Shown here: positions 5,247 to 30,107 of the stretch, piece after piece
Layout of the letters: each line of letters begins with the position of its first letter
Numbering within the stretch: position 1 is the stretch's first letter
DNA from: Escherichia phage vB_EcoM-G3F7
Length of the DNA stretch: 64,000 nucleotides
Sequence record: MZ234035.1
Direction: 5' to 3' (one strand)
Notes under the pieces: model-generated
Databases searched by the model: none
What the model saw: the letters and a program-made list of their open reading frames with translations, nothing else
Told to the model about the DNA's origin: nothing
Program-made: the position numbers and the translations under genes

Positions 5247-5587
5247 TGTTTATCTTTAATTGGTTTAAAAATTTCTTTACGGATTTTTTCTCTACAGTTC
5301 CTGGGGAAGGTGTAGTTCCTATTTCAAATGACGACCTTCCTTTAACTGTAGTTGAGTATGTTTATATGGGAGATGGAACAGTAGAAGCAGTCACTATGAC
5401 TTATGAAGAAGCCCAAGAATATTATAAAAATCCTTGGCGCTGGTCAGTACCTACTACATCATCTAATGCACAGAATACACAGTCTAGTTCTGATTCATAT
5501 GATACTAATGTTCCTGTTCATGTATGGACGGGCGATTCATGTGGAAGTTCTTGTGATTCTAGTTGTTCATCTACATCTTGTGATTGA
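5246..5587 (+). CDS. Hypothetical protein with Ser/Cys-rich C-terminal tail
   Basis: 113 aa; TAATG start overlap; C-terminus [18 protein letters not shown]. Confidence 0.5.
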
Positions 5588-25311: not shown

Positions 25312-25316
25312 TTTTA

Positions 25317-25341
25317 GGGAGAGCCTCGGCTCTCCCTTTTT
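25317..25341 (+). terminator. Rho-independent terminator
   Basis: GGGAGAG...CTCTCCC stem-loop followed by TTTTT. Confidence 0.55.
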
Positions 25342-25366
25342 ATTTCAAAAATTTTTTCACAAAACG

Positions 25367-25396
25367 GTTTACAACCAAAGCATACTGTGGTACTAT
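25367..25396 (+). promoter_or_regulatory. T4-type early promoter (repeated cassette)
   Basis: GTTTAC 25367-25372, 18-nt spacer, TACTAT 25391-25396; cassette shared with 42716-42769. Confidence 0.5.
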
Positions 25397-25445
25397 ACAA
25401 CTATCAAATAAATGAACTGAAACAAACAACCCGGAGATACAAAAA

Positions 25446-25673
25446 ATGAAATTTAAAATCGAAAACGAAATCGTTAAAGCTAAAAATGCTCTGACTGCTA
25501 ACAAACTGGTTGTAGATGGTATTGAATATGATATCTGTGGAGTTCGTGAAGAAAAACCTGGTGTTCTGACTTTCTTCACAATGATTTTTAAATTTAAAGG
25601 TGACACAGAATTCAAACAGTTTGATTTTGCCCATGAAGACGAAATCGAAGTTCGTAATCTGAACATTAAGTAA
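25446..25673 (+). CDS. Hypothetical protein (75 aa)
   Basis: Track ORF, ATG start after promoter. Confidence 0.5.
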   Translation: MKFKIENEIVKAKNALTANKLVVDGIEYDICGVREEKPGVLTFFTMIFKFKGDTEFKQFDFAHEDEIEVRNLNIK

Positions 25674-25778
25674 GTACTTTATTAGAGCTCTTGAAAAAGA
25701 GTGCAAAAAAGTGTTTACTTCTGCTTTAAACATGATACTATAGACCTATCAAATAAATGAACTGAAACGGAGATTAAA

Positions 25779-26414
25779 ATGTCTAAAGTAACTTACATCA
25801 TCAAAGCTTCTAACGATATTCTGAATGAAAAAACTGCTGCGATTTTAATTACCATTGCTAAGAAAGATTTCATTACAGCTGCAGAAGTTCGTGAGGTGCA
25901 TCCAGATTTAGGCAATGCAGTAGTTAATAGTAATATTGGGGTATTGATTAAAAAAGGCCTGGTGGAGAAATCTGGTGATGGATTAATCATTACTGGTGAA
26001 GCTCAGGATATTATTTCAAATGCAGCAACTTTATACGCACAGGAAAACGCTCCGGAACTGCTGAAAAAACGAGCAACTCGTAAAGCTCGCGAAATTACTT
26101 CTGATATGGAAGAAGATAAAGACTTCATGTTAAAACTTTTAGATGAAAATGGATTTGTTCTTAAAAAGGTTGAAACTTACCGCAGTAACTATCTCGCTAT
26201 TTTAGAAAAACGCACTCACGGAATTCGTAATTTTGAAATTAACAACAATGGAAATATGCGAATTTTTGGATACAAAATGATGGAACATCATATTCAGAAA
26301 TTTACTGACATCGGAATGTCATGTAAAATCGCTAAAAACGGTAATGTGTATCTTGACATTAAACGTTCGGCAGAAAACATTGAAGCTGTAATCACTGTAG
26401 CATCTGAACTGTGA
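25779..26414 (+). CDS. motA: MotA, activator of middle transcription
   Basis: 211 aa MSKVTYIIKASNDILNEKTAAILITIAKKDFITAAEVREVHPDLGNAVV...; matches T4 MotA as recalled. Confidence 0.9.
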   Translation: MSKVTYIIKASNDILNEKTAAILITIAKKDFITAAEVREVHPDLGNAVVNSNIGVLIKKGLVEKSGDGLIITGEAQDIISNAATLYAQENAPELLKKRATRKAREITSDMEEDKDFMLKLLDENGFVLKKVETYRSNYLAILEKRTHGIRNFEINNNGNMRIFGYKMMEHHIQKFTDIGMSCKIAKNGNVYLDIKRSAENIEAVITVASEL

Positions 26415-26424
26415 GGAATAAATA

Positions 26425-26754
26425 ATGAACAAGTTAGAAATTGTCAATGAACTTCGTCGTTGTGTAGAACCTACTCAAGAGGGTTGGGACATCTGGTACC
26501 ATGGAGCTTATCTTGGAACTATCGTAAAGATTAAGACTGGCAAATACATGATTATTCGTGAAAGTAAAGATGCTCCAGTAGGTATTCGCAATAATTTCAT
26601 GGCAGCTATAAGTTCCTTTATGGATTCAGCTTACGAAATTTACCTTGCTGATTATAAAGAATTCCATGAATCTCAACCAGTTATTCGCTCAATTGGTGTT
26701 AACAAAGCTCAACAGAAAACTTTATGGCAACGTATTAAAGGATGGTTTAAATGA
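26425..26754 (+). CDS. Hypothetical protein (109 aa)
   Basis: Track ORF, ATG after GAGGA. Confidence 0.5.
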   Translation: MNKLEIVNELRRCVEPTQEGWDIWYHGAYLGTIVKIKTGKYMIIRESKDAPVGIRNNFMAAISSFMDSAYEIYLADYKEFHESQPVIRSIGVNKAQQKTLWQRIKGWFK

Positions 26755-26906
26755 AAACATTTAAAATTGTCGTAGAATTTTATAACGGCGAAGGTGTAGT
26801 CCATCTTAAAGCGGCCAACCAGTTTGATGCGGTAAGAGTATATTGTCAATGCTTTGAAAGTTCTAAACAAGCTATAAAAATTAAAAGTGTTGAGGAAACC
26901 AAATGA
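26751..26906 (+). CDS. Hypothetical small protein (51 aa)
   Basis: Hand-translated [51 protein letters not shown]; ATGA overlaps at both ends. Confidence 0.35.
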
Positions 26907-27370
26907 AAACCTTCAAAGAGCGTCTTGAATTATTAGACCTGGCTTTATTACGTGAAACTCCAGAAAGTCTAGCAGCTAAATTACAGGCCTATGGCGACTA
27001 CACCGAATATACGGAAGAGGATGTTTTAGAAGAGGTTCCTGAAATCTGTTGGCAAGTAGCTCATTGGAACAATAATGAAAAATATCAACGTCGAATTGTG
27101 TGTGCAGCCAACCGCTTTAAGTTAAAAGATGGTGGGACTCTGGTTATTCCTGGTGCTCGTCATTATTCTAAAGATATGGCTGAAGTTCTTGACCAGGTAA
27201 GTGATAAACTTGTATCAGACCATGTTTGTGGTGAAGACCAAGGATTTATTGACCAGTATAGCAATTACTGGACACGTGAAGAAGCAATGATTATTGCAAC
27301 TTACGCTGGACAAGTGCGTATTGAACGTGGTGGTAGTGAAAAAGAACTTTACTCTGAGGACCTTTACTAA
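26903..27370 (+). CDS. Hypothetical protein (155 aa)
   Basis: Track ORF, ATG after GAGGAAA. Confidence 0.5.
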
Positions 27371-27666
27371 TGAATATTAAAAAGTTTCAAATTGATGGAA
27401 TTAAGAATCAAATCCAGGCGTTGGAATATGCCAATAAAATGATGTCAACTAATTGGGGAATTTATACAAATGAACCGGCATTTCAGTTCTGTGATATGGA
27501 ATTCACTAAAAAGCTCGTAGGAAAAGATTATGTATGCCCATTTAGTTTTCCGGTAAATGGAATGCTAAAACCTGCTTTACGCGATCTTTATATTGCGATG
27601 AACGAAGAAATGATAAAAGAATTAAAACGTCAACTGAAGGTGATTCAATTTGGCCAGGGAAATTAA
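27370..27666 (+). CDS. Hypothetical protein (98 aa)
   Basis: Track ORF, TAATG overlap. Confidence 0.5.
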   Translation: MNIKKFQIDGIKNQIQALEYANKMMSTNWGIYTNEPAFQFCDMEFTKKLVGKDYVCPFSFPVNGMLKPALRDLYIAMNEEMIKELKRQLKVIQFGQGN

Positions 27667-27868
27667 TTCAAAATCTGATTATTTTAATTCTCTCAATGAT
27701 AAAGATAAAAATCTAATACGGCATTTTATTGTTGAGATGGGATATACTGATACACGTGATTTAAGAGAACATATATTTGAATGTGGTGTAGCTAAAAAGT
27801 TTTCATTCACATGCAAATGTTTAAGAGAGGTAATTCAGCATTATGAACAATTTAGTCGCAAAACATAA
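27650..27868 (+). CDS. Hypothetical Cys-containing small protein; start uncertain (TTG 27650 or ATG 27737)
   Basis: Track ORF begins with TTG overlapping the upstream gene. Confidence 0.3.
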   Translation: MAREINSKSDYFNSLNDKDKNLIRHFIVEMGYTDTRDLREHIFECGVAKKFSFTCKCLREVIQHYEQFSRKT

Positions 27869-27951
27869 TTTTAATAAAGCTTCTGTCCATAAAGATAAGA
27901 AGAAAGCGTTTAAAGAATCTAATCGCAAACAGAAACATAAGGGGAAGGTCT

Positions 27952-28230
27952 ATGATTATTGATTCTCAATCTGTGGTTCAATATACAATCAAAATTGATA
28001 TTCTAGAAAAGCTATATAAGTTTCTACCAAATTTATACCACTCAATTGTTAATGAATTAGTTGAAGAACTACATCTTGAGAATAATGATTTCTTGATTGG
28101 AACTTATAAAGACCTCTCAAAAGCAGGATATTTTTACGTAATTCCAGCTCCAGGAAAAAGTATTGATGATGTATTAAAAACTATAATGATTTATGTCCAT
28201 GATTATGAAATTGAAGATTATTTCGAATGA
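27952..28230 (+). CDS. arn: Acidic protein, candidate Arn (anti-restriction DNA mimic) by size and position
   Basis: 92 aa, Asp/Glu-rich, between motA and asiA where T4 arn lies; AAGGGGAAGG SD. Confidence 0.4.
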   Translation: MIIDSQSVVQYTIKIDILEKLYKFLPNLYHSIVNELVEELHLENNDFLIGTYKDLSKAGYFYVIPAPGKSIDDVLKTIMIYVHDYEIEDYFE

Positions 28231-28379
28231 GTTATAATCTTGAAATGGTAATCGAGCATAATGTAGCTCAGGAACGTGAGTCGTTCAAGGAATTCGTAGA
28301 AAAAATTTTTGAAGAAAATAACACAGACCAGTTTACAAATCAAACGTCTGATGATATTATAACAAAGTCAACTAATTGA
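28227..28379 (+). CDS. Hypothetical small acidic protein (50 aa)
   Basis: Hand-translated MSYNLEMVIEHNVAQERESFKEFVEKIFEENNTDQFTNQTSDDIITKSTN; ATGA overlap. Confidence 0.35.
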   Translation: MSYNLEMVIEHNVAQERESFKEFVEKIFEENNTDQFTNQTSDDIITKSTN

Positions 28380-28392
28380 GTGGTATAAGTTA

Positions 28393-28665
28393 ATGAATAA
28401 AAATATTGATACAGTTCGTGAAATTATTACTGTTGCGTCTATTTTGATTAAATTTTCCAGAGAAGATATTGTTGAGAATCGCGCTAATTTTATTGCATTT
28501 CTGAATGAGATTGGAGTAACGCATGAAGGTAGAAAGTTAAATCAGAATTCATTCCGTAAAATTGTTTCTGAATTAACTCAAGAAGATAAGAAAACCCTCA
28601 TCGACGAATTCAACGAGGGTTTTGAGGGTGTATATCGATATCTAGAGATGTATACGAACAAATAA
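28393..28665 (+). CDS. asiA: AsiA anti-sigma-70 factor
   Basis: 90 aa MNKNIDTVREIITVASILIKFSREDIVENRANFIAFLNEIG...; matches T4 AsiA as recalled. Confidence 0.9.
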   Translation: MNKNIDTVREIITVASILIKFSREDIVENRANFIAFLNEIGVTHEGRKLNQNSFRKIVSELTQEDKKTLIDEFNEGFEGVYRYLEMYTNK

Positions 28666-29322
28666 TTATTTAGCCCTTCCTAATATTCTGGCCGCCTGAG
28701 CACATATTGATTCAAGGCGGTCATTACTTATATGATCATTTCTATACCAGTACATGGTTATTGTTCCAGCATAGATATTATCCAAATTAAAATATGGACA
28801 ACTGTACATGTAGTTTATTTCGGGAGTAGGCTTTTTAGTTGGTAAAAAAGCAAATTTTGAGTCGGAATAATAATGACGTCCATTTAAATGAACTGTATAT
28901 TCATCCATAGTTTTATCAACAGGATATCCTCCAAGTGATTTTTCACTTATTGTTGAAGGTAATTTTCCTTCATATGCTATAATATCAACAAAATAGTTTA
29001 AGTTTTTAGGGCGGAAAGAATACACCGCACTAAAGTCTGCCTCAGATGATATATGAACTATCTGGAGTTGTTCCAGGGCGACAGATTCAAAGCGTGCATT
29101 TCTTTCCTTTTCAATAATTTCACTGTATGTTTCATACTTTGATTGCTTATAGTACTCAAAGAAACTATCTCCCCTATACCAAACAATCGCCATCATAAAT
29201 AAAAGAATTACGACAGCTACCCGGGAAGCAAGAACTTTCCCGGTAGCGTTATCTTTGAACAAGCGATCTAGAACACCAAACAGAATACCAGAGGGCGAAA
29301 ATGATATTCTAGGTGCTGCCAT
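28666..29322 (-). CDS. t: Holin T
   Basis: 218 aa with N-terminal TMD and large periplasmic domain; matches T4 T as recalled; AGGAGGG SD. Confidence 0.9.
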   Translation of the reverse strand: MAAPRISFSPSGILFGVLDRLFKDNATGKVLASRVAVVILLFMMAIVWYRGDSFFEYYKQSKYETYSEIIEKERNARFESVALEQLQIVHISSEADFSAVYSFRPKNLNYFVDIIAYEGKLPSTISEKSLGGYPVDKTMDEYTVHLNGRHYYSDSKFAFLPTKKPTPEINYMYSCPYFNLDNIYAGTITMYWYRNDHISNDRLESICAQAARILGRAK

Positions 29323-29355
29323 AGACCCTCCTTTTAAGGGTATTTATTCACATTA

Positions 29356-29552
29356 TACTCTTGGACCATATATTGCTCCAACATTTTGCCATGTTGGAGC
29401 GGACCCTATGACAGCATAACCAGCAGCGCCGCCATTATATTCAGATCCTTGACCGCGAATATTGCATCTACCTCCCGCGGAACCTACTTCACCACCGTTT
29501 CCACCATTATAGATACCATTCACGGATCCTGAGCCAGGTGCAGAAATAGAAT
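29356..29552 (-). other. 38: gp38 C-terminal coding segment lying in a different frame from the main gp38 ORF
   Basis: Minus-strand frame offset by one nt encodes ...[63 protein letters not shown] with stop at 29353-29355. Confidence 0.55.
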
Positions 29553-30107
29553 AGATCCTCCTGGCGCACCAAAAGGACGACCGCCACCACCACCAAAGGT
29601 CAATCTCATTCGTGAAAAAGGAGAATAATATCCGCCGCCGCCACCGCCGCCACCGCCTGCAATAGCTCCGCCATTATTAATTCTTAGTCTCCCACCAATA
29701 TCGTTTTGAATACAATGACCTCCAGCTGAGCCAGGACTATTGCTACCGCCATTACCTCCACGACCATACATCGTTACGCCATGTATATTTAACTGAACAT
29801 ATTCATTTGGTGTATCTCCGTACATGAAGAATAAAGGAACATCTTTAGAATAAGAAACGATATCACCAACAATATTGAATACAATAGGTGCACCGCCAGC
29901 TTCAAAGCATCTATCACGGAACCACTGACCATTAAAATTGTGGTTTGCTCCTACAGTATGAATAATTTCTCGTGAGCGACCTGCAAATTGACTCATCCAG
30001 CAAGGAACACCCAATCTTAATTGACCAGCCGCTTGACTCATCCAGCGCTGTCCTGTTTCATTTGCGGCTGAACTTCCAATCCAACCAGGAACACCAACTA
30101 CTGCCAT
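29520..30107 (-). CDS. 38: Tail-fibre adhesin gp38, T2-type with glycine-rich motifs; ORF ends prematurely at an apparent frameshift
   Basis: 195-codon [16 protein letters not shown]...[35 protein letters not shown] then out-of-frame tail; not the T4-type gp38 chaperone. Confidence 0.7.

Follow-up and report, generated by a model that had tools for sequence, protein, structure and literature searches.

The protein Arn mimics DNA; it binds McrBC, a restriction enzyme, and blocks it. In T4 its gene belongs to a named cluster of small genes, and the subject here is the counterpart of that cluster in Escherichia phage vB_EcoM-G3F7 (sequence record MZ234035.1). It occupies positions 26425-28392, between motA and asiA, of a 64,000-nucleotide (nt) stretch of the record; this whole stretch is called the window below. 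T4 also has orphan antitoxins. Dmd acts against RnlA/LsoA, and gp30.3 (AdfN), which is DarG1-like, counters DarTG1. Neither the locus nor Arn is new. The former is a textbook T4 locus and the latter a solved protein, and flagging them, as the initial annotation of the window did, adds nothing alone. The value for follow-up lies in three other features: a homology between Arn.3 and the antitoxin CmdA, a revised model of arn.1 at the pairing site of the small RNA ArcZ, and an unannotated gene of the DUF7230 family.

CmdA is the labile antitoxin of CmdTAC (PD-T4-9), a toxin-antitoxin-chaperone (TAC) defence carried by a P2-like prophage, by which T-even infections are aborted. The toxin, CmdT, ADP-ribosylates mRNA, and the chaperone, CmdC, resembles SecB (Vassallo et al., 2022, 2024). 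Its restriction of T2, T4, T6 and 10 of the 12 T-even phages of the BASEL collection ranges from 10^2.8 to 10^6.3 (CmdTAC paper, Vassallo et al.). Bas35 and Bas38 are the only escapers, and that paper offers no explanation for them. arn.3 has had no proposed function since it was annotated in T4. Its homology to cmdA supplies a hypothesis that can be tested by plaque assay and a candidate for the two BASEL escapes. The best overall explanation, one that we favour with some reserve, is that the region is an arn operon in which Arn.3 would serve as a CmdA-hairpin decoy against CmdT.

A CmdA-like module in Arn.3

arn.3 spans 26903-27370 on the + strand and encodes 155 amino acids (aa); it was assigned by comparison with the T4 annotation. 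Residues 1-33 (26903-27001, + strand) match positions 1-33 of the 77 in the PADLOC profile PD-T4-9_B with an E-value of 3.3e-6. Of 5027 PADLOC models, no other matches significantly (E<=0.001). In the ECOR22 system (proteins RCP66309-311 in order) PD-T4-9_B corresponds to the middle gene, which is taken to be CmdA. The same profile is matched by 14 of 49 Arn.3 homologues, always at positions 1-33, the best at E 2.5e-10. Arn.3 of T4 itself reaches only 16 bits.

The search also works in reverse. A profile made from the phage modules alone hits the genuine E. coli CmdA with 42.8 bits (E 1.5e-9), and the next decoy scores 7.4 bits. Some of the Arn.3 modules are ~59% identical to CmdA over 32 residues, as counted from the sequences. 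With one CmdA sequence included, the module profile retrieves a family of 77-aa enterobacterial proteins matching CmdA, and the one member that was checked has the same prophage context as the known operon. AlphaFold 2 (AF2) places helices at residues 4-15 and 20-29 of Arn.3, followed by a low-confidence linker. CmdA has been described alike, as N-terminal helices and then a disordered part (CmdTAC paper, Vassallo et al.). As far as sequence comparison can tell, residues 1-33 of Arn.3 and the two helices at the N-terminus of CmdA are very probably homologous.

A genuine cmdTAC operon, that of E. coli N2250 (L016 1943-3156), was recovered via a primer junction from the supplement of the CmdTAC paper. 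It encodes a 192-aa toxin, a 77-aa CmdA beginning MLSFEQRMALLNKALQQYNPESLYEKLSSY and a 129-aa SecB-like protein, and it lies in a P2-like prophage, with the P2 replication gene on one side and the portal gene on the other. A cmdTAC-type operon occupies the same prophage slot in Citrobacter freundii (L035 1934-3126). Across these two operons the toxin is 185-192 aa, CmdA 77 aa and the SecB-like chaperone 129 aa. The genes are annotated as hypothetical or SecB in N2250, and no Pfam hit is on record for those in Citrobacter.

Having one domain in common with CmdA does not make Arn.3 a CmdA. It never matches positions 34-77 of PD-T4-9_B and instead has a folded, unrelated C-terminal domain, for a total of 155 aa. 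Its neighbours are arn.4/the 51-aa open reading frame (ORF) on one side and arn.2 on the other, with no toxin or SecB-like chaperone nearby. A tblastn search with the module against plasmids gave no match, and no mention of an Arn.3-CmdA homology was found in the searchable literature.

The initial annotation had found no motif to assign in the neighbours of Arn. This holds for Arn.2, Arn.1 and AsiA.1, which have no match in family (Pfam), PDB or defence databases, and fails for the CmdA-like N-terminus of Arn.3. When Pfam, NCBIfam and PADLOC were run on all eight proteins of the island (the seven then listed and a 39-aa protein described below), the only matches were for Arn, the 39-aa protein and the Arn.3 N-terminus.

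The other part of Arn.3 is a C-terminal core of ~110 residues that its homologues have in common (codons 45-155, 27035-27367, + strand). The invariant residues that mark it are R63, R71, R86-H87-Y88, Q113-G114-F115, D117 and a C-terminal SEDLY. Searched against 1.84 billion proteins, a family profile yields 2772 cluster representatives at E<=1e-3. In all of the 150 best hits the core is C-terminal, behind N-terminal extensions of 0 to ~330 residues. A Foldseek search of BFVD with the core returns uncharacterised phage proteins and weak hits to polyvalent-protein-associated domains, and the core shows no resemblance to a known ADP-ribosylglycohydrolase fold or other solved fold. Pfam gives no N-terminal domains on the ten longest proteins with this core, and on 60 long members PADLOC gives only the CmdA match, once. 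Precomputed Pfam tags on homologues are PF26092 for Arn.3 and PF26821 for Arn.4; no mention of PF26092 was found in the literature searched. Arn.3 is a two-part protein, a CmdA-like hairpin joined to a widespread phage domain.

The N-terminal extensions of the family are modular, as can be seen in the homologues P0001, P0021, P0023, P0033, P0041 and P0056. In P0001 the CmdA-like module is duplicated in tandem. A second short module, MLPLEM..GEGF..PIEE, occurs alone or with the CmdA-like one. There are at least two further unrelated N-terminal types, and the types other than the CmdA-like one match no known defence protein.

Arn.3 alleles and escape from CmdTAC

The published plaque data allow Arn.3 alleles to be set beside sensitivity, and the arn locus was compared in all 15 phages (T2, T4, T6 and the 12 BASEL T-evens). 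A CmdA-like Arn.3 N-terminus (MK[TS]F[KE]ERL...AL) is found in the two escapers, Bas35 and Bas38. It is also found in Bas36 and Bas46, which are restricted by 10^5.3 and 10^4.5. T2, T4, T6, Bas37 and Bas39-45 have the degenerate T4-type N-terminus (MNPFINRLKMLNVPL), and 11 of 11 are restricted. Bas35 is the closest to the present case, with an Arn.3 N-terminus identical to that of the window. In Bas38 the Arn.3 core is of the T4 type, and the difference from restricted phages is confined to the N-terminal ~45 residues. The association of allele with escape is suggestive at best. One further difference, noticed post hoc, is that the linker YTEEDVL is present only in the two escapers.

It is clear that a CmdA-like allele is not sufficient for escape. 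Because Bas36 and Bas46 carry the module and are nevertheless restricted, the module must be insufficient against the CmdTAC of ECOR22. Other candidates at or outside the locus fare no better. The 51-aa ORF that precedes arn.3 in the window is ruled out, as Bas38 is without it. C-terminal extensions of Alt.-3 let T4 escape by promoting CmdA accumulation (CmdTAC paper, Vassallo et al.). Natural extensions of this kind are ruled out: Alt.-3 has 96 aa in T4, Bas35, Bas36 and Bas38, the Bas35 protein being identical to that of T4 and the Bas38 protein to that of Bas36. An intact second Alt-type ADP-ribosyltransferase (Alt2; 2058 nt, 685 codons) is present in Bas35, Bas38 and Bas36, and T4 has only the alt.-1/alt.-2 duplication remnants. 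Alt2 is ruled out as the explanation too, since the restricted Bas36 has it at 99.3% identity to that of Bas35.

What if Arn.3 is an orphan-antitoxin decoy? In this scenario the CmdA-like hairpin would dock onto CmdT-type mRNA ADP-ribosyltransferase toxins. Once infection triggers the degradation of CmdA, Arn.3 would persist and keep the toxin neutralised. It could persist because it is without the chaperone-dependent, ClpP-sensitive tail of CmdA. That Arn.3 acts against CmdTAC-type systems is a tentative proposal drawn from its sequence. A more specific form of it is rather doubtful, namely that the hairpin would be a stable, chaperone-independent antitoxin mimic, and that hairpin and linker alleles would set which T-evens escape which CmdTAC variants. 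If true, this would explain the resistance of Bas35 and Bas38, and phages would be fusing exchangeable targeting modules to the Arn.3 core as a shared effector or scaffold. Antitoxins and their toxins usually pair in an allele-specific way.

The arn operon and its gene models

The segment 25700-28700 of the window is 100% identical in DNA sequence to Escherichia phage vB_EcoM-CHD94UKE2 and several other Tequatroviruses, and 99.9% identical to the BASEL phage Bas35 (WilhelmHis). At least 80% of it is covered in 476 phage records. The island is flanked by gp52 (topoisomerase) and motA upstream and by asiA, holin t, gp38 and gp37 downstream. Its gene order is shared with T4, on one strand: motA, arn.4, arn.3, arn.2, arn.1, arn, asiA.1, asiA. 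It can hardly be doubted that this is a T-even (Tequatrovirus) arn operon and that its Arn is correctly identified. The initial annotation had read it as an early-gene island of the kind where anti-defence genes cluster, and this reading is supported: its 92-aa ORF is Arn and the locus is the T-even arn cluster. The left flank, motA (25779-26414, + strand), encodes the middle-transcription activator (Pfam MotA_activ 1.2e-60, MotCF 9e-67; 97% identical to T4 MotA). The right flank, asiA (28393-28665, + strand), encodes the anti-sigma-70 factor (Pfam AsiA 1e-42; 100% identical to T4 AsiA).

All seven ORFs that had been placed between motA and asiA were found at their positions, all on the + strand. 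Each matches a PHROG family (E 1e-36 to 1e-71), and they are therefore genes and not chance frames. The list was incomplete, as it missed an eighth conserved ORF of 39 aa at 27843-27962. Relative to the annotated T4 order there are two extras, the 51-aa gene of the window and the 39-aa gene, which T4 has in common with it and which is unannotated there.

arn itself (27952-28230, + strand, 92 aa) encodes the DNA-mimic McrBC inhibitor. The protein matches Pfam DM_Arn (PF22134) over profile positions 1-79 of 79 with 181.2 bits (cutoff 26; E 4.4e-54), as well as phrog_3151, 'inhibitor of MrcBC restriction'. It is identical to crystallised T4 Arn (PDB 3WX4 chain A) at 90 of 92 positions over the full length (98%). 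These matches settle its earlier identification as an Arn-like protein, and its predicted acidity is also borne out (D+E 16 vs K+R 7). Given the 98% identity to T4 Arn, the protein of the window presumably blocks McrBC, which cleaves hydroxymethylcytosine DNA, by DNA mimicry.

The most consequential revision concerns arn.1. T4 and most records annotate a 43-aa protein, which in the window would start at ATG 27737 (27737-27868). However, a longer frame of 72 aa opens at TTG 27650 inside arn.2 (27650-27868, + strand), with a Shine-Dalgarno-like GAAGGTG upstream at 27643-27649 (7 nt). This long form is the one that had been listed initially, as an ORF of ~72 aa, and comparative evidence favours it. 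The 29 extra residues are conserved at the protein level in Dhakavirus VR5, Jiaodavirus KP185 and Mosigvirus Bas46 and Bas38, where the ORF starts with ATG or GTG. The string YFNSLN within them is invariant in a four-way alignment that includes VR5 and KP185, and it reads YFNSVN in Bas46 and Bas38. The ratio of nonsynonymous to synonymous change (dN/dS) is 0.12-0.15 upstream of the annotated ATG vs 0.16 downstream. Among the window, T2, T4 and T6, 7 of 7 substitutions in the extension are synonymous third positions of the long frame. On the strength of this protein conservation, the low dN/dS and the synonymous changes, Arn.1 is probably the TTG-started 72-aa form rather than the 43-aa form of the T4 annotation.

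This matters for a regulatory model proposed for T2. There the 3' end of arn.2 base-pairs with the host small RNA ArcZ, which protects the transcript from RNase E; the RNase E site is assigned to a "70-nt intergenic region" (Collins et al., bioRxiv 10.64898/2026.06.19.733364). The region so treated corresponds to 27667-27736 of the window. The pairing site CCAGGGAAAT lies at 27654-27663 (+ strand; arn.2 +285 to +294, as in the T2 study) and is identical in the window, T2, T4, T6 and Bas36. Its complementarity to AUUUCCCUGG of E. coli ArcZ is perfect, and the ArcZ sequence itself was confirmed as Rfam RF00081 (117.6 bits). GCATT, the proposed RNase E site, is at 27721-27725 (+ strand), 11 nt before the annotated arn.1 ATG and positioned as in T2. 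ArcZ-dependent stabilisation is established in T2; here it is the predicted pairing site that is conserved. From the 72-aa model it follows that the "70-nt intergenic region" would be arn.1 coding sequence. On our reading, ArcZ would pair with arn.1 codons 2-5, the TTG start being 2 nt before the site. The ArcZ/RNase E mechanism would then read differently, as pairing within the first five codons of a gene.

The missed 39-aa ORF (27843-27962, + strand) shares its start with the final 26 nt of arn.1 and its end with the opening 11 nt of arn. It matches Pfam DUF7230 (PF23876; 44.9 bits against a gathering cutoff of 27; 1.2e-11) and phrog_1359 (5e-23), and it is strongly basic (K+R 12 of 39). The protein, MNNLVAKHNFNKASVHKDKKKAFKESNRKQKHKGKVYDY, is identical in T4, where the reference leaves it unannotated. 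The records of T2, T6, Klebsiella phage KP185 and Dhakavirus MX01 do annotate it, and identity across these genera is 62-85%. In MX01 the ORF comes directly after arn.2, and there is no arn.1. Several longer PHROG families have only the first ~25 residues of this ORF in common. A conserved basic protein encoded between arn.1 and arn is thus absent from the T4 reference annotation, and the gene models in current work on the arn operon appear incomplete.

Differences of annotation also affect arn.4 (26425-26754, + strand, full-length 109 aa; compared with the T4 annotation). Nearly all relatives have the 109-aa form, and the 68-aa Arn.4 of T4 is its C-terminal part, begun at an internal Met. Is T4 arn.4 frameshifted? 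This was considered and rejected. Positions 5455-5457 of the T4 reference NC_000866 (equivalent to 26425-26427 of the window) read ATA and not ATG, and the frame is otherwise intact, so that the difference is one of start codon.

The 51-aa ORF (26751-26906, + strand; RB32ORF252c type; phrog_15636, 2e-40) is an insertion between arn.4 and arn.3 relative to T4. It is absent from T4, T2, T6 and eleven other BASEL T-evens examined. Together with the window-type Arn.3 N-terminus it occurs in 77 phage records, including RB14, RB32, RB33 and Bas35. The ORF and arn.3 share the start ATGAAAAC.TT.AAA (MKTFK). Their first 15 nt are nearly alike, ATGAAAACATTTAAA and ATGAAAACCTTCAAA, both encoding MKTFK. 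The near-identity of these starts suggests that the insert came by recombination at the arn.3 start or by its duplication.

Two genes of the cluster remain. arn.2 (27370-27666, + strand, 98 aa) matches phrog_1844 (8e-51), and its product is 97% identical to T4 Arn.2. asiA.1 (28227-28379, + strand) encodes an acidic protein of 50 aa (phrog_3762, 8e-37; 92% identical to T4 AsiA.1). The common theme of the eight small early/middle genes is most likely the neutralising of host defences. Arn.4, the 51-aa ORF, Arn.2, Arn.1, the DUF7230 peptide and AsiA.1 are assumed to be further host-interaction or counter-defence factors.

Signals for transcription were sought by consensus matching only. A hairpin resembling a terminator lies at 25316-25337, ahead of a sigma-70-like promoter at 25368-25396. 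The + strand showed no terminator-like site at 25338-28800, and a second promoter-like site lies upstream of asiA at 28332-28360. The MotA-box pattern of middle promoters was not found inside the island, and an Rfam scan of the island found nothing. Further downstream, on the - strand, gp38 (a T2-type adhesin) appears broken into a frame of 195 aa (29520-30107) and an overlapping, glycine-rich one of 56 aa (29353-29523). The split (29353-30107) points to a frameshift at or close to the glycine-rich repeats, or else to a sequencing error in the source.

Alternatives and known counterparts

Several observations weigh against reading Arn.3 as a decoy. The notion that CmdA holds its toxin by the N-terminal hairpin is itself drawn by analogy from other TAC antitoxins. 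The similarity to CmdA covers ~30 residues and is visible to profile methods only, as pairwise BLASTP of Arn.3 against CmdA gives no alignment. Two of the phages with the module, Bas36 and Bas46, are fully restricted. Escape is 2 of 4 for the CmdA-like alleles vs 0 of 11 for the T4-type, which in Fisher's test gives p = 0.057 among related phages with many other variable loci. The counter-defence role of the other small proteins is an assumption from location. Perhaps, then, Arn is the only anti-defence protein of the cluster. The Arn.3 hairpin would be a shared helical domain for oligomerisation or for another host protein, or CmdA would have taken it from phages, and Bas35 and Bas38 would escape via another locus. 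The restricted carriers and the marginal association fit such an account, as do the presence of the core without the module in most homologues examined and the high variability of the N-terminal extensions, the others of which match no known defence protein. Nevertheless, this account is unlikely. PD-T4-9_B is the sole significant match among the PADLOC models, the match is reciprocal, and identity rises to ~59% over 32 residues. CmdTAC targets exactly the T-even group, no phage with a degenerate module escapes, and the two candidate loci that the CmdTAC studies bring up, Alt.-3 and the alt paralogue next to it, fail to separate escapers from restricted phages.

It is also conceivable that Arn.3 hinders CmdTAC without binding the toxin. 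It might compete for the protease or stabilise CmdA, or its core might act enzymatically on ADP-ribosylated mRNA with the hairpin as a targeting device. Extended Alt.-3 variants rescue T4 by CmdA accumulation, AdfN is a precedent for the enzymatic reversal of ADP-ribosylation, and the core has enzyme-like invariant polar residues (R, R-H-Y, Q-G-F-x-D, S-E-D). However, the core resembles no ADP-ribosylglycohydrolase or other solved fold. In other TAC antitoxins the C-terminal part is the chaperone-bound part, and Arn.3 is without the corresponding part of CmdA (positions 34-77). Both versions are improbable. Least probable by far is that the smallest ORFs (the 51-, 39- and 50-aa ORFs and the arn.1 extension) are chance frames in an AT-rich spacer. 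They are short, the 39-aa ORF and long arn.1 are unannotated in T4 and most records, and the T2 preprint treats 27667-27736 as intergenic. Against this, all have strong PHROG family matches. The 39-aa ORF scores above the Pfam gathering cutoff, and its conservation across genera extends to where there is no arn.1. The arn.1 extension has the substitution pattern expected of a gene and opens with ATG or GTG in other genera.

With the arn operon as the setting and Arn.3 as a candidate CmdA-hairpin decoy, how does the locus compare with described systems? It shares the gene order, the ArcZ pairing sequence and the GCATT motif with the arn operon of T4 and T2. It differs in the extra 51-aa gene and in another Arn.3 N-terminal allele, and it has a further gene (DUF7230) between arn.1 and arn. 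The non-coding spacer between arn.2 and arn.1 in the T2 model of ArcZ action is not borne out, as the stretch evolves as coding sequence. The Arn proteins of T4 (3WX4) and the window have in common their length of 92 aa, their place upstream of asiA.1/asiA and their acidity, and differ solely by F13I and N69S, as read from the alignment.

For Arn.3 the counterparts are more distant. Foldseek hits of its core to the 'large polyvalent protein associated domain' are weak (E 3e-3 to 6e-2). Like such domains, which belong to phages and conjugative elements, the core is combined with many different partners. Unlike proteins with polyvalent domains, members of the Arn.3 family are small (83-434 aa in the 150 best hits) and carry the core C-terminally in all of them. 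CmdA shares with Arn.3 the two helices, ~33 residues and the motif F-x-x-R-[LM]-x-L-L-x-x-A-L-...-P-E-S-L-x-x-K-L-x-x-Y. However, Arn.3 is without the disordered C-terminal half of CmdA, is twice as long and is phage-encoded. A functional parallel would be AdfN, likewise a T-even homologue of a host antitoxin that comes without the toxin and is directed against a system with an ADP-ribosyltransferase toxin. For Arn.3 this homology is at the level of a domain only. AdfN is an enzyme (NADAR) that reverses the modification, whereas the Arn.3 module appears to be a short domain of the binding type.

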